64,000 nucleotides of DNA. Origin: an uncultured bacterium (GTDB lineage Bacteria; Bacillota; Limnochordia; DTU080; JAAYLA01). The first letter of the stretch is position 1; every line of letters begins with the position of its first letter. The DNA lies in contig CALKAQ010000031.1 in assembly GCA_937983075.1 (NCBI GenBank), forward strand, positions 1,717 through 65,716. Reading direction: 5' to 3'. Positions 4,922 through 54,738 of the stretch are shown here, in pieces. Under the pieces are notes generated by a model that was not told where the DNA came from, did no database searches, and saw only the letters and a list, made by a program, of their open reading frames with translations. The translations under genes were made by a program, and so were the position numbers.

Positions 4922-5835
4922 GTGAAAGCCATTTCAACGGAATGAGTTCATCTCCGCTCGACTCCATCAGCATTGCTGTTGCCGCTGAAGGAGCTTTGCG
5001 AGCATACGCCGCGGTGACGACGCAGCTCGTTGAAGAGGCGCGTCGACGCCACGGACTCTACCCGACGGCTGCAGCGGCCGTGGGCCGAACGATGACGGCC
5101 GCAGCGATCATGGGGATGATGCTCAAAGAAGGTCAAAACGTCATGGTCCAACTCACCGGAGACGGGCCGATCCGCCAGATCTTGGCTCAAGCGGACGCTG
5201 AGGGAAATGTGCGAGGTTATGCAGCCAATCCGCATGTACACCTTCCCTTAAATCGCGACAAGAAACTTGATGTAGCCGGCGCCATCGGCCAAGGGCGTTT
5301 GGATGTCATCAAAGATCTCCAGCTCAAGGAACCGTATCGGGGCATGGTACGCTTGATTTCGGGTGAAATTGCCGAGGATGTCGCCTACTACTTCGTTCAG
5401 TCCGAACAAGTGCCGTCAGCCGTGGCACTTGGTGTCCGTGTTGAAGCGGAGGGCCGGGTCAGCGCAGCAGGTGGTTTGATTATCCAAGCGCTTCCCGGGG
5501 CCGATCCCCAAGCTTTGGAGGCATTGGAGCAGCGTTTGCAAACGTTGCAGAACGTATCGCGCATGGTTGCGTCCAATATGGGGCCGAATGATATTTTGCG
5601 AGCGGCATTGGGCGACCTCGACATTACCATTCTTAAGGAACATCCGCTTCGTTTTGCGTGCAACTGTTCCCATGAGCGCTTTTCGCGAGGGCTGCTCGCG
5701 CTCGGACCCGACGAGCTGCGGGACATGATTCAGCAAGATGGCGAAGCTGAGTTGACGTGTCACTTCTGTTCGGAGCAATATCACTTTACCAAAGAAGATT
5801 TGCAAGAGCTCCTGCGCAATTTTGAAGAGGCTTAG
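4918..5835 (+). CDS. hslO: Hsp33 redox-regulated chaperone
   Basis: Hsp33 fold motifs and C-terminal CxC...CxxC zinc centre (FACNCSHERF ... CHFCSEQY). Confidence 0.9.
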   Translation: MSESHFNGMSSSPLDSISIAVAAEGALRAYAAVTTQLVEEARRRHGLYPTAAAAVGRTMTAAAIMGMMLKEGQNVMVQLTGDGPIRQILAQADAEGNVRGYAANPHVHLPLNRDKKLDVAGAIGQGRLDVIKDLQLKEPYRGMVRLISGEIAEDVAYYFVQSEQVPSAVALGVRVEAEGRVSAAGGLIIQALPGADPQALEALEQRLQTLQNVSRMVASNMGPNDILRAALGDLDITILKEHPLRFACNCSHERFSRGLLALGPDELRDMIQQDGEAELTCHFCSEQYHFTKEDLQELLRNFEEA

Positions 5836-6770: not shown

Positions 6771-6836
6771 CGGGAAAACCGCCAGCATCGCAAGCGCCGT
6801 GCCAACAATTGCTGGAGGTAGGGAGGCAGTCCACGT

Positions 6837-8216
6837 TTGAAGATTCCGCAACACGTTCATCTCATTGGAATTGGCGGCACAGGCATGCGCTCCATCGCCA
6901 AGGTGCTGCTCGAGCAAGGATTGCGTGTCACGGGTTCGGATGTCGCAGAAACGGACGCTATCAGTGCCTTGCGTGAGCTCGGGGCGACCATCAACATCGG
7001 GCACAAGGAGGAACATCTCAACGGGGCGGAAATGGTCGTCGTATCGACGGCCATTCTCGCCGACAATCCTGAATGGACCGCGGCCAAGGCGCGCGGGATT
7101 CCCGTGGTGCATCGTTCAGAGCTGTGGGCACACCTGCTCAACAACGGGAAAGGCATCGCCGTTGCGGGCACACACGGGAAGACAACCGTCACGAGTTTGA
7201 TTTCTTGGGTGTTATACCGAGCGGGGCACGACCCTACCTTTCTGATCGGAGGCGAAATTCCCGGGATCGGTGCAGCGCGTTACGGCAAGGGGCCCCTTGT
7301 GGTGGCCGAAGCCGATGAGAGTGACGGATCGTTCGTTCGTTATCGGCCATGGTGCAGTGTCGTAACGAGCATCGAACCCGATCATATGGAATTTTACGAA
7401 GGCGACTTCAAGCGCCTTGTCGCCACGTATCGGCAGTTCCTCCGGAACACGCATCCCGACGGTTTGGCGGTTCTTTGCTGCGACGATGAACGTGTGCGTG
7501 ATGAATTGGCGGAACTCGACTGCCGTCGAGTCACTTACGGATTTCATCCCGAAGCCGAATGGCGTGCGACGCATATCCGACTGCACGAATTTCACTCGAC
7601 ATTCCGGGTGGAGAAAAATGGCGAGCCCGTCGGGGAAGCACGGTTGTCGATCCCCGGCCGTCACAACGTACAGAACGCCCTTGCCGTGATTGCGGTATGT
7701 ACGGAAGTCGGTATCGACTTTGCCCACATTGCTGAGCATATGCCTGCTTTTTCAGGGACGCGGCGCCGTTTTGAACGTGTTGCCGAGCATAACGGGATCC
7801 TGGTGATCGACGACTATGCTCACCACCCGTCGGAAATTCGGGCCACGTTGCAGGCGGCTCGTCGTGGCTGGCCAAATCGGCGGCTCATCGCGGTTTTCCA
7901 ACCTCATCGCTATGCGCGCACGCACGCGCTGTTCGAAGAGTTCGCTGCGTCTTTTGCTGAAGCTGACATGGCAATCATCACGGAAATTTATTCGCCTCCG
8001 CCTGACAAGCCAATCCCCGGCATCACCGGGGAACGCCTGGCGCGGGAGATCCAGGCCGCGTCGCCGCAAGTTCACGTCGCTCACGTACGCGATGTCACTT
8101 CCGTGCCGGACTATTTGTTCGAGCAAATTCGTCCCGGCGACATGATTGTCACGATGGGCGCGGGCGATGTGTGGCGGGCGGCAAAAGCATTGGCCGAACG
8201 GTTGCAAGCCGGTTGA
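6837..8216 (+). CDS. murC: UDP-N-acetylmuramate--L-alanine ligase
   Basis: HLIGIGGTGMRSIAKVL Rossmann motif, GTHGKTTVTSLIS P-loop, DDYAHHPSEI; TTG at 6837 after GGAGGTAGGGAGG. Confidence 0.9.
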   Translation: MKIPQHVHLIGIGGTGMRSIAKVLLEQGLRVTGSDVAETDAISALRELGATINIGHKEEHLNGAEMVVVSTAILADNPEWTAAKARGIPVVHRSELWAHLLNNGKGIAVAGTHGKTTVTSLISWVLYRAGHDPTFLIGGEIPGIGAARYGKGPLVVAEADESDGSFVRYRPWCSVVTSIEPDHMEFYEGDFKRLVATYRQFLRNTHPDGLAVLCCDDERVRDELAELDCRRVTYGFHPEAEWRATHIRLHEFHSTFRVEKNGEPVGEARLSIPGRHNVQNALAVIAVCTEVGIDFAHIAEHMPAFSGTRRRFERVAEHNGILVIDDYAHHPSEIRATLQAARRGWPNRRLIAVFQPHRYARTHALFEEFAASFAEADMAIITEIYSPPPDKPIPGITGERLAREIQAASPQVHVAHVRDVTSVPDYLFEQIRPGDMIVTMGAGDVWRAAKALAERLQAG

Positions 8217-48954: not shown

Positions 48955-49362
48955 ATGCAATCGGCCATGGAAAGCATCAAGGAAATTGTCGATGTCAACA
49001 CCATTTTAGGTGACCCGGTTGAAACACCCGATGGCACGGTAATATTGCCGATTTCCAGGGTGAGCCTCGGATTTGCGGCCGGAGGCACGGAATTTGAGAC
49101 GGAGCAGCGGCGGAGCGGCGACAACCATCAGAGGAACGGTTTTCCGTTCGGTGGCGGAAGCGGAGCGGGCATCTCCGTCAATCCGGTAGCATTTCTTGTG
49201 GTCGGCCAAGGACAAATCCGTTTGCTGCCGGTTGACTCCAGTGTTGTCGCAGATCGTTTGATCGACCTGGCACCCAAGATGTTCGACCGCATTCAAAACC
49301 TATTTGACAGCCGGAACCGCAATCAGTCCTACGGCAGCCACATGCAAGACCACCCCATTTAA
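48955..49362 (+). CDS. ytfJ: Sporulation protein YtfJ (GerW family)
   Basis: ILGDPVETPDGTVILPISRVSLGFAAGGTEF ... GGGSGAGISVNPVAFLVV signature; start chosen at internal ATG 48955. Confidence 0.7.
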   Translation: MQSAMESIKEIVDVNTILGDPVETPDGTVILPISRVSLGFAAGGTEFETEQRRSGDNHQRNGFPFGGGSGAGISVNPVAFLVVGQGQIRLLPVDSSVVADRLIDLAPKMFDRIQNLFDSRNRNQSYGSHMQDHPI

Positions 49363-49499
49363 ACGCCGGCAGATGGAACGTCTGAGCCGGAGCGTCGCCG
49401 GAGTATTCGTCCGTAGGCAGGAAGAGGCAGTGCCAACAGCGAACTCACTGGGCCCGGTGGCAGTTCGCTTGCAGATGGGAAAGGGCGGAACAGCGTCAG

Positions 49500-50222
49500 A
49501 TGGCGACTATGCGTTTGCAAAAGGCTTTGGCTCAGGCTGGTGTCGCTTCACGGCGTGCGGCTGAAGCGTTGATCGCTGCAGGGCGAGTCAGTGTAGACGG
49601 GCAAATCGTGCGAGAGCTTGGCACCAAAGTCGATCCCCGACGCCAAGTGATCGCAGTGGACGGGCAGATCATACAGACCGAAGTTCAAGTGCATTATGCA
49701 CTCCACAAGCCAAGCGGTGTGGTCAGTACCGTGCGCGATCCGCAAGGGCGGCCTACAGTGCGTCAGCTCTTGCGTTCCGTCCCGCAGCGGATTTACCCCG
49801 TCGGTCGTCTCGATGCGGATACAACCGGCCTTTTGCTGCTGACCAATGATGGCGAGTTAGCCAACCGATTGATGCACCCGCGCTACGAAGTCAAAAAAGA
49901 GTATATCGCCACCGTGCGCGGCAGCGTATCCGACTCTGCTTTGGAGCGCCTGGCTGCGGGCATTGAATTGGATGACGGTCCGACTGCTCCGGCACGCGTG
50001 CGGCGGCTCGGCAAGAGCGCAGGCGCAACGCGGGTCAGCATCGAGATCCACGAAGGACGAAATCGGCAGGTCCGCCGCATGTTTGCTGCCGTCGGACATC
50101 CCGTGATCGCACTGCATCGAGTGCGTATCGGTCCCATCCGTCTTGGTCATCTTCCTCCTGGGGCTTATCGCCCGCTTACCCCCGATGAAATTCGCAAGCT
50201 GTACCAGCTGGTCGGCCTGTGA
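49500..50222 (+). CDS. rluB: Pseudouridine synthase, RluB/RsuA family, with S4 domain
   Basis: S4 RLQKALAQAGVASRR; catalytic YPVGRLDADTTGLLLLTNDG. Confidence 0.9.
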   Translation: MATMRLQKALAQAGVASRRAAEALIAAGRVSVDGQIVRELGTKVDPRRQVIAVDGQIIQTEVQVHYALHKPSGVVSTVRDPQGRPTVRQLLRSVPQRIYPVGRLDADTTGLLLLTNDGELANRLMHPRYEVKKEYIATVRGSVSDSALERLAAGIELDDGPTAPARVRRLGKSAGATRVSIEIHEGRNRQVRRMFAAVGHPVIALHRVRIGPIRLGHLPPGAYRPLTPDEIRKLYQLVGL

Positions 50223-50468
50223 ACCATCCGCTTTTCGTGGAAATAGGGTTTACGATATGACAGCGTTATGCTATATTTAACAGGTAATCACATAGCAGTG
50301 ACGGCCTCGTGCGCCCAGCTGGCAGGACGGTAGGATGGAAGTGGGCATTTCGATTCGGCGGCTGTCGAGTGCAGTACAGCTACGTGCACCCGCAGGATGC
50401 TGTTTTGTTTGAAACTTCCGGTTTCCCCATTTCACACCTATAACCGTACGTCATAGAACTCAGCGTGA

Positions 50469-50500
50469 TGCGACAGGCCGGTATGCCGAGTCGCTTTTTT
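50469..50500 (+). terminator. Intrinsic terminator 27 nt upstream of the HutP-family start codon (candidate attenuator)
   Basis: GCGAC-AGGCCGGTATGCCGA-GTCGC followed by TTTTTTATTTTT. Confidence 0.6.
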
Positions 50501-50526
50501 ATTTTTATAGGCTTGGGGGGATCACG

Positions 50527-50964
50527 TTGGAGCATAGTCTTAGCCGCATTACTGCCCGAGCCGCGCTTCGCTTGGCATTGACGAGCAGTCGTGAAGAAGA
50601 AAAAACTTTTCGGCAGGAGCTTGAAGCCGAAGGCATCAGGACGGCGGCGGCGGACTACGGCGGTGACTTTACGACCGCGGTCCGGAGCATTGTGGAGCGG
50701 GCCGTGGTGGCGGCCAAACGCGAGGGCGTTATTGAAGATACCCACCCCGACGAAGGGGCGGTTGCCGGGGCCGTTCACGAAGCTTTGGGACAAGTGCTGC
50801 CAAAAGCTTTCGGGTTGAACGTCGGCGGCAAAATCGGCATCGCACGCAAGGGAGAGCACATTGCGGTCGCCGTATACTTCGGAATTGGACTATTGCACTT
50901 GGACGATGTGGCGGTAGGCCTTGCGCATCGAGCCGTACCCGATGTTATGGCTGCAAACGAGTAA
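50527..50964 (+). CDS. HutP-family RNA-binding antiterminator-like protein
   Basis: 145 aa; GVIEDTHPDEGAVAGAVHEALGQV and GEHIAVAVYFGIG align with the Bacillus HutP core (from memory). Confidence 0.6.
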   Translation: MEHSLSRITARAALRLALTSSREEEKTFRQELEAEGIRTAAADYGGDFTTAVRSIVERAVVAAKREGVIEDTHPDEGAVAGAVHEALGQVLPKAFGLNVGGKIGIARKGEHIAVAVYFGIGLLHLDDVAVGLAHRAVPDVMAANE

Positions 50965-51048
50965 ATTCCGGCTTATGCCACTCATCAAGGTGGTCATAGG
51001 CGACGTCGATCTTTCAGCGAAAGCGTGAACCGACAGGGGTGAAACAAT

Positions 51049-51426
51049 GTGGCGGACATGCTGGTTGTCCGGGGAATCCGCGGGGCGATAACAGTGGATG
51101 CTGACGAGCCGGATCAGATTATCGCCGCTGCGCGCGAACTCGTCGAAGAGATGATTAGGGTGAACGATGTCGATATCGAGATGATCGCCAGCGTGGTGTT
51201 CTCGGCAACGCCAGACCTCAAATCGGCGTTTCCGGCTGTAGGCGGGCGCGAAGCGGGACTCACCAACGTGCCTTTGTTCTGCACCACGGAAATCGACGTA
51301 CCGGGCGCGCAGCCTCGCTGCTTGCGAGTGCTCATGCACGTCAACACGACTAAAAAGCAACATGAAATTCAGCATGTGTATTTGCGGGATGCAGTCAATC
51401 TCCGCCCTGACCTCGAGAGGAGATGA
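51049..51426 (+). CDS. aroH: Chorismate mutase, AroH class
   Basis: VRGIRGAITVDADE ... FSATPDL ... RVLMHVNT pattern of B. subtilis AroH. Confidence 0.85.
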   Translation: MADMLVVRGIRGAITVDADEPDQIIAAARELVEEMIRVNDVDIEMIASVVFSATPDLKSAFPAVGGREAGLTNVPLFCTTEIDVPGAQPRCLRVLMHVNTTKKQHEIQHVYLRDAVNLRPDLERR

Positions 51427-52544
51427 TGAGGATGCTGCGCCACCGACCGACTATTGAGCGTCTGACACCGTATTCACCTGGAAAGTCCATTCAAGAAGTT
51501 CAAGAGGCTTTCGGTCTCGAGTCCGTGGTAAAGTTGGCGTCCAATGAAAATCCATTGGGGCCGTCTCAACGGGCGCAATCGGCCGCCGAGGCGGCTCTGC
51601 GGGACATTCATCGTTATCCTGACGGTGCTCACCGCCGGTTGATTCGGCGCTTGGCATCGCATCTCGATGTACCCGAAGATTTCCTTGTCGTCGGCAATGG
51701 TTCCGATGAAGTTTTGAAACTCATCGGTGAAGCGTACCTGGATCCTGGCGACGAGGTTGTCTACGCGGATCCCACTTTTTCTGAGTACGCTTATGTGGCA
51801 CGTCTCTGTGGTGCCACGGAACGTGTGGTACCGCTTACATCCGACGAGCGCCACGATCTTCAGGCCATGGCTGAAGCCGTCAATCCTCGTACCAAGATCG
51901 TTTTCGTCTGCAACCCGAACAACCCGACGGGTACGATTGTTCACCACGACGAGCTTCAGTCGTTCTTAGACAAGTTGCCCGAAAGCATTCTGGTCGTCAT
52001 CGATGAAGCCTATTTTGAGTACGTCACCGACCCGCGTTATGCGGATACGGTAAGCTGGATTCGTGAAGGGCGCAACATCATTGTTTTGCGCACGTTTTCT
52101 AAAGTTTATGGGCTTGCCGGTTTGCGTGTCGGCTACGGAATTGGTTTGCCTGAAACGATCGCCATGGTGCGCCGTGTCAAAGAACCGTTTAATGTCAACA
52201 GCATTGCGCAGGCCGCTGCTGAAGCCGCTCTTGACGATGCCGACCACTTGCAGGCGAGCCTTCGTTTGAACAGCGAAGAACGCGAGCGCGTCTCAAGCCG
52301 CTTGCGGGAGCTCGGATTGCGTGTGACCCCGAGTCAAGCCAATTTCATTTGGGTTGAACTTGACGGCCCTGCCGATCCGGTTTATCGAGGACTGCTCCGG
52401 AGAGGCGTGATCGTGCGGTCCGGTGAAGCTTTCGGTCGGCCGAGGCACTTGCGCATCACCATTGGAACACCTCAGGAAAACGACTTGTTTTTGGACCTTT
52501 TGCCACAAGTGTTGTCGACGTTGGAAAGGAGTGCAACTTCATGA
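51423..52544 (+). CDS. hisC: Histidinol-phosphate aminotransferase
   Basis: [14 protein letters not shown]-lysine region [14 protein letters not shown]. Confidence 0.9.
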
Positions 52545-53554
52545 TCGTTGTTATGGAACCCGGAGCCTCACCCGAGAAGATAGAACGAGTGGTCCAGCGC
52601 TTAAAGGAGCTCGGCTTCGATACGCACCTTTCAGAAGGAGTTGAGCGCACCATCATCGGCGCCATCGGTCAGCGAACCGAAGAGAAAGTGTATCAAATCG
52701 AATCCATCGAAGGAGTCGAACGGACACTGCCGATTACTCAGCCATTTAAGCTTTCGGGCAAGGAATTCAAGGCGGAGCGGACTCAGGTGCGGGTCGGCGA
52801 CGTCGTCTTCGGTGGCGAGTTGGTGCCGGTCATCGCCGGTCCGTGTGCCGTGGAAAGCGAGGAGCAGATCATCGAAACCGCCCGGGCCGTGAAGGAGCAC
52901 GGTGCTCATTTGCTGCGCGGCGGTGCGTACAAGCCTCGCACGTCGCCGTACTCTTTTCAGGGATTGGAAGAGGACGGCCTCAAAATGCTGGCCGCCGCCC
53001 GTGCAGAAACGGGCTTGCCCGTTGTGACCGAAGTCGTCGATCCGAGAGACGTAGAGCTCGTTTGCGAATACGCTGACCTGCTGCAAGTAGGCGCCCGGAA
53101 CATGCAGAACTTCGCCCTCTTGAAAGAGTTGGGGCAGTGCAGGCATCCAGTGATGTTGAAGCGTGGTTTGGCGGCGACCATTTCGGAATGGCTCCAAGCG
53201 GCGGACTACATTATTTCGGGCGGCAACCGCAACGTGATCTTGTGTGAACGCGGGATTCGCACGTATGAAACCGAAACGCGCAACACGCTCGATCTCTCGG
53301 CCGTTCCGGCGGTACGCGAGCTTTCGCACTTGCCCATTGTGGTCGATCCGAGCCACGGAACCGGTAAATGGCGCTATGTAACGGCCATGGCGCGGGCCGG
53401 TGTAGCGGCCGGCGCGGACGGCATTATCGTTGAAGTGCATCCACGGCCGGAAGAGGCGGTTTCCGATGGTCCGCAGTCACTTCGCCCGGAGATCTTCGGT
53501 GAAATGATGCGTGAATTGCGAGCGGTAGCCTCAGCGGTCGGTCGACGGATATGA
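52541..53554 (+). CDS. 3-deoxy-7-phosphoheptulonate (DAHP) synthase, type I-beta with N-terminal ferredoxin-like regulatory domain
   Basis: [12 protein letters not shown] ... [11 protein letters not shown] ... catalytic barrel related to KDO8P synthase. Confidence 0.85.
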
Positions 53555-54738
53555 CGGAGATGTCGAACGGAGAGGAAGGGAGTCCGGATATGTCCACGTA
53601 TGATGCCGAGGAACCTAACTTCCAACACCACGTTGACTCGGGTTGGACGGTGGCGATCATAGGACTCGGATTAATTGGCGGCTCGCTGGGCATGGCTTGG
53701 CGAACCGCTCCTTCCGTTCGGCGAGTCATCGGTGTGGTCCGGCGTCCTGAAGCAGTCGATGAAGCGGTTGCTCTCGGTGCTTGTGACGAGGCGACGCTGG
53801 ATGCGCGGGCGGCGGCAGCACAAGCGGACATTGTCGTCGTCTGCACACCGATATCCTCTATTATATCGACGGTCAAGGACATTTTGCCGGCCGTCAGGCC
53901 GGGAACCATTATCACAGACGCCGGCAGCACGAAAGCAGCCGTGTGCAACGCTTTGTGGAGTGTATGTCCTTCTGGCGTTTACTTTATAGGCGGCCATCCG
54001 ATGGCCGGTTCGGAAAAAGACGGCATTCGTGCGGCCGACCCTTATTTATTTGAAAACGCGGTCTATGTATTGACACCGCATGCGGAACAGATCGGGTCAG
54101 AAGCCGTGGCGCGATTGACTCAGCTCGTCCGAGAGCTCGGAGCGCTGCCGATGTTGATGGATCCCGAACGGCACGACACCATTGTAGCTGCGGTGAGTCA
54201 TGTGCCTCACTTGGCGGCGGCCGCGCTTGTTCATGCTGTCGACCAGGTCAACCGTGAGGTGCCGGATACATTGACGCTGGCTGCTGGAGGGTTTCGCGAC
54301 ACCACGCGCATTGCCTCGGGACTGCCTTCGCTTTGGCGAGAAATTTGTTTGAGCAACCGCGAATCCATTAAGCAAGTGCTCCAGCGTTACATCCAGGTGC
54401 TGGAAGAAATGATGCGGAGCATCGATCAAGCAGACGGCGGTGCGCTGGAAGCGTTGTTGAAGCACGCCAGGGATGTCCGGCAGAAGGTCCCCAACCGCTC
54501 GAAGGGAATCATCGCTTCCTTATTCGAACTTGTAGTTGAGATGGTCGACAGGCCAGGAGAAATTGCCGCGGTGACAACGCTTCTCGCCAAGGAGCATGTC
54601 AACCTGATCGACATTGAAATTTTGCGTGTGCGCGAGGGCGAAGGGGGAACCGTTCGCCTTGGTTTTGAATCCGACACGGAGCGTGATCAGGCGATGAGGA
54701 TTCTGCGCGCTAACGGCTACCGTGCTCGAGCGAGATAA
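53551..54738 (+). CDS. tyrA: Prephenate dehydrogenase with C-terminal ACT domain
   Basis: [12 protein letters not shown] Rossmann motif, GHPMAGSE catalytic region, C-terminal ACT; start may be a downstream in-frame ATG. Confidence 0.85.

Follow-up and report, generated by a model that had tools for sequence, protein, structure and literature searches.

Control of aromatic amino-acid synthesis in Bacillota by TRAP and by T-boxes is textbook knowledge. For most of the Clostridia without TRAP or a T-box upstream of aroH and the gene of 3-deoxy-D-arabino-heptulosonate 7-phosphate (DAHP) synthase we know of no regulator, and to our knowledge the HutP fold has so far been known from a single catabolic operon in Bacillus. 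Here we analyze a stretch of 64,000 nucleotides (nt) from contig CALKAQ010000031.1 of an uncultured bacterium of the Limnochordia, hereafter termed the window, in which a HutP-like gene is preceded by a non-coding gap of 304 nt and followed by aroH, hisC, DAHP synthase and tyrA genes. With a probability of roughly 0.6, this gap serves as the 5' leader in an autoregulated operon, in which an effector-loaded HutP-like hexamer would bind a repeat element, termed R, and repress the operon.

The closest described system is the hut operon. HutP is a hexamer, each subunit of which reads the A and G of one NAG triplet, with three triplets per face; two sites about 17–20 nt apart wrap the protein, L-histidine and Mg2+ are needed, and binding melts the terminator (PMC2425495, PMC12591593). 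The NAG triplets are separated by spacers of two to four free nucleotides (PMC12591593). In Bacillus subtilis the two hut sites start at U498 and C532, i.e. 34 nt apart (PMC2425495). A 2025 review of RNA-binding antiterminators treats HutP solely as the regulator of the Bacillus hut operon (PMC12591593). In the full-text literature, with subscription-only papers outside the scope, we found no account of a HutP paralogue acting on aromatic genes, nor of R, and Rfam 15 contains no family that matches the leader.

The studied locus shares with B. subtilis HutP (1VEA, 1WPV, 1WMQ, 3BOY) the Pfam family, the fold and the size of about 145 aa of its regulator, an RNA target of NAG triplets, three per site and often in two sites with a linker of some tens of nt, and a regulator encoded within the operon that it would control. 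The differences concern the targets, which are aromatic biosynthesis and transport genes here and histidine catabolism for HutP; the gene order, as the HutP-like gene lies downstream of the terminator whereas the HutP gene lies upstream of its terminator; and the location of many R sites over ribosome-binding sites, which makes repression likelier than antitermination. TRAP (mtrB, B. subtilis) is similar in that an amino-acid-sensing oligomer would bind NAG-type repeats in nascent RNA, attenuate transcription by preventing an antiterminator, block translation at other genes by covering the ribosome-binding site, and control a part of the aromatic pathway. In contrast to R, with three or four triplets spaced by 5 nt, a TRAP site has 11 triplets spaced by 2–3 nt, and the two proteins belong to unrelated folds and families. 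The window leader has no TRAP-type site: its triplets follow the R spacing, and the adjacent regulator has the HutP fold. The layout is that of the pyr operon controlled by PyrR, namely a promoter, a leader with a terminator, the regulator gene first and the biosynthetic genes next, and the proposed logic is also the same, with an end-product-responsive binding that favours the terminator and gives negative autoregulation. PyrR differs in its phosphoribosyltransferase fold and in its target, a structured anti-antiterminator hairpin, whereas R is a single-stranded repeat.

Architecture of the hutP-like leader

The rluB gene (Pfam S4 and PseudoU_synth_2) ends at position 50222 of the window, and the gap (50223–50526, plus strand, as are all features of the window given below) extends to the TTG start codon of the HutP-like gene at 50527. 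The first-pass annotation of this DNA had described a leader of about 300 nt before a HutP-family gene heading an aromatic cluster, which agrees with the length of the gap and with Pfam matches for every gene named. A sigma-70-like promoter is located at 50249..50277, with a -35 box TTTACG, a 17-nt spacer and an extended -10 box TGcTATATT (consensus scan, nine matches of 12, with the TG), and transcription likely starts at about 50283–50286. An equivalent TTTACA/TTGCTA...TATAAT-like promoter precedes the repeats in ten loci that encode relatives of the protein (denoted by L numbers: L050, L045, L046, L051, L052, L107, L056, L001, L005 and L010). Upstream of the -35 box the window cannot be aligned with its closest relative, L050, while the promoter itself is kept. 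Since this promoter lies between rluB and the terminator hairpin and is conserved in relatives, the terminator falls within the transcription unit of the HutP-like gene, and a transcript that reaches the gene has to read through the hairpin, as had been argued in the first annotation.

The intrinsic terminator (50470..50508) was identified by sequence and fold. It consists of a hairpin at 50470–50494 (GCGAC-a-GGC / cgguau / GCC-ga-GUCGC) and a U-run, UUUUUUAUUUUUAU, at 50495–50508; its initially assigned coordinates, 50469..50500, and its distance to the start codon are essentially correct. A simple terminator scan did not detect the hairpin at 50470–50494 because of its interior loop. Its folding energy of -13.4 kcal/mol (z = -0.16) is ordinary and by itself not above chance. 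A hairpin with a U-run is found at the equivalent position, with unrelated stem sequences, in L045, L046, L051, L052, L056, L001, L005, L010 and L178, and the block 50457–50504 shows 100% identity to L050, in contrast to the diverged leader middle. The support for the hairpin is thus comparative. The sequence CAGCGUGAU (50463–50471), just 5' of the terminator, is complementary to GAUCACGUUG (50518–50528), which comprises the spacer and the TTG start; in the minimum free energy (MFE) structure this helix could mask the hutP-like start codon in read-through transcripts, and it is identical in L050.

The repeat element R (50316..50346), a candidate binding site of the HutP-like protein recognized by a positional matrix and by conservation, is the only leader element that is conserved in distant relatives. 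It reads CAGcugg CAGGACGG UAGGAUGG AAGugggc and contains three to four NAG triplets with a period of 8 nt, so that a search for UAG or NAG repeats, suggested for this leader earlier, gave a positive result. The units have the form NAG-N-A-Y-G-G, are preceded by GG, and remain in register across otherwise unalignable leaders; relatives at 64–92% protein identity share in their leaders the promoter, R and the terminator, and little else. The corresponding sequences are UAGGACGG UAGCAUGG GAGAUGGG in L045, UAGCACGG UAGCAUGG in L046, UAGGAUGG CAGGUGGG in L052, CAGGAAGG CAGGACGG in L056, UAGGAUGG UAGGAUAG in L010, and CAGAAUGG AAGGAUGG in L001. An alignment of 23 sites shows almost no variation at A and G in the first two triplets; C or U occupies the first position, and the last three bases of the spacer are YGG. 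In contrast to HutP sites, with a period of 7 nt and free spacers, R has a partly conserved 5-nt spacer, N-A-Y-G-G.

The window copy of R scores 30.3 bits with the leader-trained matrix (match from 50320) and is the best match in 64 kb. The exact pattern AGGAYRGNAGGAYRG has one occurrence in the window, and a second copy, sought near aroH, was not found, all other matches in the window being below 13 bits (the next best at about 12.5–12.9). Between the window and L050, the blocks 50246–50373 (promoter, R and a local hairpin, H1) and 50457–50530 (terminator block) are conserved, the leader middle and the sequence 5' of the -35 box have diverged, and the substitutions within R fall at the degenerate N and Y positions. 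Six strain variants of the window leader differ by one single-nucleotide polymorphism only.

A possible weak upstream site, AUAG CAG UGACGG (50293..50306), was read from the sequence; it is invariant in L050 and starts about 29 nt before the main repeat (50323). By likeness to the two-site leaders of relatives, it may be a second binding site. Such leaders, with start-to-start distances of about 28–53 nt as compared with 34 nt in hut, are found in L019, L020, L042, L182, L178 and L106, and are consistent with a hexamer having two RNA-binding faces (the protein was modelled as a monomer). With three triplets per site, invariance of A and G, and two-site leaders, the motif would fit the chemistry of HutP.

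No known RNA family was recognized in the leader. An Rfam 15 search of positions 49000–52000, a check proposed in the first annotation, gave no family at E ≤ 10, in agreement with its remark that a T-box is absent; at the gathering score, nothing except one tRNA was found in the whole window, and there was no relevant match in 12 related loci. The conserved part of the leader is a simple repeat and not a folded domain (full-leader fold z = -0.86), which, with the lack of an Rfam match, speaks against the riboswitch considered at first. The short open reading frame (ORF) MTALCYI (50258–50281), also listed at first as a leader feature, overlaps the promoter hexamers and lies 5' of the likely transcription start, and a second one, of 25 codons (50335–50412), has its AUG inside the repeat, where L050 has ACG. 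A GUG ORF with W-K-W-A-F-R-F (50309–50443) is interrupted by UGA in L050. Ribosome-mediated attenuation by a leader peptide was rejected, since the ORFs of the leader lose their start or gain a stop in L050 and none is conserved.

The HutP-like protein and R sites across genomes

The first gene of the operon (50527..50964, 145 codons), with a ribosome-binding site GGGGGGA at 50514–50520 (50514..50529 with the TTG start), encodes a HutP-family protein of 145 aa, the proposed RNA-binding regulator. Its N-terminus, MEHSLSR, is also present in P0001. The match to PF09021 covers 127 of 128 model positions (E 2.7e-48, 163.9 bits), and no NCBIfam model matches the protein. The AlphaFold2 monomer model (predicted local distance difference test 86, predicted template-modelling (TM) score 0.83) retrieves HutP chains from the PDB at ranks 1–11 by Foldseek, with TM scores of 0.63–0.75, E-values down to 2e-8 and identity of 20–28%; the assignment to the HutP family made at first is thereby confirmed. 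The HutP fold comprises a four-stranded antiparallel sheet with helices at its flanks. On the sequence level the relationship to HutP is remote, with identity of about 23%: HMMER searches against PDB sequences, with the single sequence and with a 24-sequence profile, did not find HutP, and hhalign aligns the protein to B. subtilis HutP at E 1.3e-4. Hence it is a HutP-fold protein of a distinct branch, far from HutP of the hut operon.

The branch is very conserved across Clostridia, with 48 invariant columns in a 24-sequence sample, and comprises 5986 clusters at 90% identity and 322 clusters at 50% identity. Among the best 120 hits, the identity is 64–92% and source labels include Pelotomaculum, Thermincola, Desulfitobacterium and 'Formimonas'. 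The branch has its own set of invariant His, Glu, Lys and Arg residues, with H73, E76, H111, H124 and H134 as the invariant His and Glu. No hut genes were found near the hutP-like gene in the window or in relatives; the neighbours are aroH, hisC, the DAHP synthase gene and tyrA, as well as trp genes and transporters in relatives.

To describe the distribution of R, we used 43 species-representative loci encoding relatives of the protein, along with closer relatives from assemblies. A position matrix trained solely on 11 hutP-like leader sites was applied to both strands of the 43 loci (324 kb) with a threshold of at least 14 bits. We found 22 sites, as compared with a mean of 2.9 and a maximum of 7 in shuffles. 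Each of them has a hutP-like gene on its own strand at a distance of no more than a few kb. Besides three training sites, 12 sites are at the start of aroH, five are 100–200 nt before a DAHP synthase gene, and one precedes an ABC permease/ATPase operon with the hutP-like gene as its last gene. A comparison of HutP paralogues adjacent to aro genes had been recommended in the first-pass annotation; it shows R recurring before aroH, DAHP synthase, aminotransferase and transporter genes in genomes that carry the paralogue, and R is thus specifically associated with genes of the aromatic pathway. In 28 of the 43 loci, aroH and/or the DAHP synthase gene lie just downstream of the hutP-like gene.

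Two types of sites were observed. In leaders with a terminator, R precedes the hairpin as in the window. In the aroH-type sites, the repeat stretches over ribosome-binding site and AUG as well as the first codons. In L014, the aroH-start repeat is ggUAGGAUGGUAGUAUGGUAGUAAGG, where AUG GUA GUA AGG encodes M V V R; in L013–L018, the third triplet is preserved as YAG via the choice of V and A codons. In Thermincola ferriacetica (L180), R covers both the hutP-like start and the aroH start. In a Desulfitobacterium hafniense metagenome-assembled genome (L178), two-site leaders with terminators precede the hutP-like gene and a hisC-like aminotransferase gene. In a Metallumcola-type contig (L182), R covers the aroH start and a two-site leader with a terminator precedes DAHP synthase-pheA-tyrA-aroA, and in a metagenomic contig (L106) a two-site leader precedes the gene of a DctP-type solute-binding protein. 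Both types occur together in one operon in L056 and in one locus in L042, where the site over the ribosome-binding site is the weaker one. By sequence and fold the protein belongs to the HutP family, but it differs from HutP in its regulon and repeat code, has translational sites in addition and probably gives the opposite regulatory output.

Proposed mechanism and its alternatives

In the proposed mechanism, transcription would start at about 50284, and the nascent RNA would first expose the NAG triplets of R (50316–50346) and later the terminator (50470–50508). The regulator would bind R in its form loaded with an aromatic amino acid, most likely tyrosine and/or phenylalanine; like HutP, it is presumably hexameric, each face carrying three NAG pockets. 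In terminator leaders, R and the adjoining RNA would form the antiterminator strand, so that occupation of R would let the terminator form. In other genomes, where R overlaps the translation initiation site (ribosome-binding site and AUG) of aroH or of the hutP-like gene, binding would block translation. The window may contain a variant, in which 50293–50306 would serve as a weak first site and the antiterminator strand in the linker between the sites would be peeled away by the hexamer, that is, the action of HutP applied to the antiterminator instead of the terminator.

Several observations point to repression, as with TRAP or PyrR, as the likely outcome, rather than to HutP-style antitermination. 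Where R covers a ribosome-binding site and AUG, as it does beside a terminator-type site in the operon of L056 and, as a weaker site, in the locus of L042, binding can only inhibit, and the covered start of the hutP-like gene in Thermincola implies negative autoregulation. The third argument is that R is a predicted antiterminator strand in several terminator-type leaders. We calculated the terminator probability P(T) at the decision point, i.e. for RNA ending at the terminator 3' arm. On blocking R, P(T) rises from 0.01 to 0.98 in L010, from 0.00 to 0.75 in L019, from 0.01 to 0.64 in L020, from 0.32 to 0.96 in L042, from 0.01 to 0.99 in L182, and from 0.67 to 0.96 in the hisC leader of L178. 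With a sliding 16-nt block as a control, the terminator was restored solely by blocks over R. The attenuator controlled by a HutP paralogue, put forward in the first-pass annotation, is thus supported by the conserved NAG repeats, the HutP fold and the association with aromatic genes; as to its direction, repression is likelier than antitermination.

In the window, the predicted antiterminator 5' strand CGGCCUCGUGCGC (50302..50314) pairs with the terminator 5' arm (50470–50480). RNAfold of 50284–50494 or 50284–50484 gives the pairs 50304–50307:50475–50478 a probability of 0.89–1.0. The free RNA has P(T) of 0.28; blocking 50289–50328 increases it to 0.94–0.97, and blocking 50293–50346 with H1 kept, as might be the case during transcription, to 0.99. 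H1 (AUUCGGC ggcu GUCGAGU, 50353..50370) is present in MFE structures and invariant in L050, and its 5' arm is also complementary to the terminator 3' arm. H1 (50351–50367) and the terminator (50471–50493) look like diverged copies of one another: CGAUUCGGC, the 5' arm of H1, finds a better pairing partner in the terminator 3' arm, GCCGAGUCG (9 bp), than in the 3' arm of H1. The two regions, neither of which varies in L050, could form a duplex of about 17 bp.

The window belongs to a long-leader type together with L045, L046, L051 and L052. Here pyrimidine-rich anti-repeat segments (ACUUCC; CCCCAUUUCACACCUAUAACC; 50412..50441) are predicted in MFE and centroid structures to pair with R and to close a multi-hairpin domain about 30 nt before the terminator, and the same architecture is predicted in these four relatives. 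For free RNA of the window, pairing of 50302–50314 with 50470–50480 is predicted to prolong this rod outward, and the antiterminator is favoured. Between the window and L050 the anti-repeat region has diverged, and it allows two pairing registers, so that the pairing is tentative. A compensatory change in the R:anti-repeat helix between the window and L050 was considered as covariation and rejected, since the second register, GGAAGU:ACUUCC, fits equally well.

Some observations weigh against the proposed repression by a HutP-like protein. In the window, blocking R alone at equilibrium lowers P(T) from 0.28–0.49 to 0.00, because a long-range duplex of 50351–67 with 50471–93 forms, and the reversal of this loss requires the kinetic assumption that H1 stays folded. 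In RNA cut before the 3' arm, the terminator 5' arm is paired whether R is blocked or not. For the window, the predicted direction hinges on whether a duplex over a range of 120 nt is allowed, so that equilibrium folding does not settle the direction of control. The window antiterminator helix has no covariation support, as L050 and the six strain variants are identical there. No antiterminator was predicted in five of the 13 leaders tested first (L001, L005, L045, L051 and L052), and L106 and the hutP-like leader of L178 show almost none.

Further points concern the protein and its linkage to R. Activation of HutP by L-histidine and Mg2+ is said, in work of Kumarevel and colleagues from 2005, to proceed through His73, His77 and His138. 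Conservation of these ligand residues is not obvious: in the hhalign alignment, Gly rather than His faces both His73 and His77, which suggests a remodelled effector site, and His138 may correspond to the invariant H124 by our own reading beyond the aligned region. Nine of the 43 loci go directly to cmk-plsC-rpsA, with no aromatic gene and no R nearby, so that a part of the linkage could be inherited gene order; the targets in these nine genomes, if any, must lie elsewhere. The motif AGGAUGG resembles a ribosome-binding site with AUG, and also a CsrA GGA site. Finally, the case that the protein would bind R is made by their co-localization in cis and the likeness of the motif to HutP sites.

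Under an alternative that we consider unlikely, the protein on R would destabilize the terminator and switch the operon on in the manner of HutP, with a precursor as the effector or with binding by the apo-protein. Antitermination is the sole mechanism demonstrated for the HutP family (PMC2425495, PMC12591593), and it agrees with the loss of the terminator on blocking R in the equilibrium model of the window and with the short leaders L001 and L005, which have no predicted antiterminator for a repressor to disrupt. NAG-like units in the terminator 5' arm, such as CAGGCCGG at 50474–50481, would perhaps also be bound, and a CAGGCC unit is found within this arm in the window and in L046. However, at aroH in at least 12 species R extends over the ribosome-binding site and AUG, and in L180 over the hutP-like start, and binding at such places could do nothing but inhibit; both types of sites coexist in the operon of L056 and the locus of L042. 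Moreover, R is the predicted antiterminator strand in six leaders, induction of a biosynthetic operon by its end product would be physiologically senseless, and an activator encoded behind its own terminator would need leaky expression to start.

Improbable to a somewhat greater degree is that R is read by another factor, such as CsrA, which recognizes GGA motifs, or acts through its structure alone, the HutP-like gene being a mere syntenic neighbour with another target. The core selected for CsrA by systematic evolution of ligands by exponential enrichment is similar to AGGAUGG; this likeness, the nine loci with the gene beside cmk-rpsA, and the indirect nature of the evidence for binding of R by the HutP-like protein speak for this possibility. 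It is opposed by the finding that in many lineages R precedes the HutP-like gene within its leader or overlaps its start, by the location of every high-scoring site within a few kb of a hutP-like gene on the same strand, and by the restriction of targets to aromatic-pathway genes and transporters, unlike a global regulon. The invariance of A and G, the three triplets per site and the two-site spacing also match HutP rather than CsrA (PMC2425495). An ordinary arrangement, in which a constitutive terminator or insulator ends rluB transcripts and damps the operon and the repeat is due to chance or low complexity, has very little probability. In its favour are the unremarkable hairpin energy, the lack of an evident separate rluB terminator, and the occurrence in many soil contigs of unrelated repeats built of tandem octamers such as (GGCAGGAC)n. 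Against it, a conserved promoter separates rluB from R, R is in register across distant relatives and about 7-fold above shuffles before aromatic genes, and the blocks 50246–50373 and 50457–50530 are kept between the window and L050 amid diverged sequence.

With repression by a HutP-like protein as the preferred explanation, the identity of its effector can be approached from the regulated genes. They encode chorismate mutase, an aminotransferase, DAHP synthase, tyrA and pheA, and point to tyrosine and/or phenylalanine. A TRAP-type trp leader was observed directly after the hutP-like gene and aroH and before trpE in L056, an uncultured Bacillota bacterium (GCA_022735835.1; 4851–5045), and in Thermincola ferriacetica (L180, 6815–6985). 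It consists of a promoter, about 11 (G/U)AG triplets spaced by 2–3 nt, and a terminator; at the gathering score, Rfam gave nothing at this leader of L056. TRAP-type and HutP-like systems thus coexist in these two genomes, the former before trpE and R at the hutP-like gene and aroH. Their presence side by side implies different effectors and a division of labour, and suggests Tyr/Phe and probably not Trp as the effector of the HutP-like protein.

The chances are about even that this extends to the branch as a whole, i.e. that the large conserved HutP branch (about 6000 clusters at 90% identity) is a Tyr/Phe-sensing RNA-binding attenuation protein of an aromatic regulon, convergent with TRAP. 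The regulon would include DAHP synthase, chorismate mutase, aminotransferase, tyrA/pheA and transporters. The NAG repeats with a period of 8 nt would serve both transcription attenuation and translational repression, with HutP-type wrapping of RNA and an inverted output. The branch would span Clostridia-type Bacillota, including Thermincola, Desulfitobacterium, Pelotomaculum and Syntrophomonas, and a co-resident TRAP would then handle trp genes only. If true, this would be a second protein-mediated attenuation system for aromatic amino acids, built on the HutP fold with a reversed regulatory output, and a clean case of convergent evolution with TRAP. It would also provide a new RNA-recognition code, NAG plus AYGG with a period of 8 nt, and a new amino-acid sensor usable as a synthetic-biology part, and thousands of gene labels reading "hut operon positive regulator" would be wrong.

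Operon genes and additional observations

The proposed regulated genes of the window occupy 51058..54738, as assigned by Pfam and by gene calls on strain variants. They are aroH, a type I chorismate mutase (51058–51426, with the ATG at 51058 set by gene callers on strain variants), a hisC-type class I/II aminotransferase (51423–52544), DAHP synthase with an FXD regulatory domain (52541–53554), and tyrA, a prephenate dehydrogenase with an ACT domain (53551–54738). The cmk-plsC-rpsA genes follow downstream of tyrA (Pfam). The order hutP-like-aroH-hisC-DAHP synthase-tyrA is also found in L044–L055 and L107.

In L107 (6137–6346; about 70% identity, same operon), R is located 8 nt after the promoter, and no recognizable hairpin with a U-run was found in this leader before the gene. 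For the ribosome-binding site of L107, pairing with a CCUCCC directly 3' of R is predicted. On the high-GC contig L142 (reverse strand, about 459–570), R is found some 100 nt upstream of aroH, and an exact anti-repeat, CCGUCCCUAC, abuts the AUG. In this third arrangement, the start region of translation would take part in the R:anti-repeat pairing. An additional match to the R matrix, UGGUAUGAUGGCAGGAGGGG, scores 20.8 bits and is located at 4904 in L014, 3.4 kb downstream of aroH. In L182, an ORF of 167 aa (6822–7325) between aroH and the DAHP synthase leader matches phosphoribosylanthranilate isomerase at E 2.9e-4, below the Pfam cut-off.

As an unbiased test of the regulon, metagenome DNA was scanned with the pattern GGYAGGAYGGYAGGAYGGNRG. 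Three of the 120 hits were informative (L106, L107 and L142), the scan being swamped by unrelated tandem-octamer arrays. Most of what it gave were perfect arrays of (GGCAGGAC)n, (GGTAGGAC)n and (GGCAGGAT)n, located on soil and sediment contigs of high GC (L058–L177), for example at L077 4734–4818, L087 2920–3001, L101 6519–6584 and L119 8783, and in L129. They have no link to HutP-like or aromatic genes, and often form two inverted arrays around a short spacer.

The upstream neighbour of the HutP-like gene in the clade of the window is ytfJ-rluB. In many lineages, a conserved ORF of 150–170 aa without a Pfam family is located directly 5' of the hutP-like gene; it was found at 5501–5950 in L180, 5209–5688 in L178 and 5194–5715 in L182, and also in L001, L003, L005, L007 and L010–L016. 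Its C-terminus reads ...GKIIVK or ...GKVKFK, and it often follows the gene of an HI0933-like flavoprotein.

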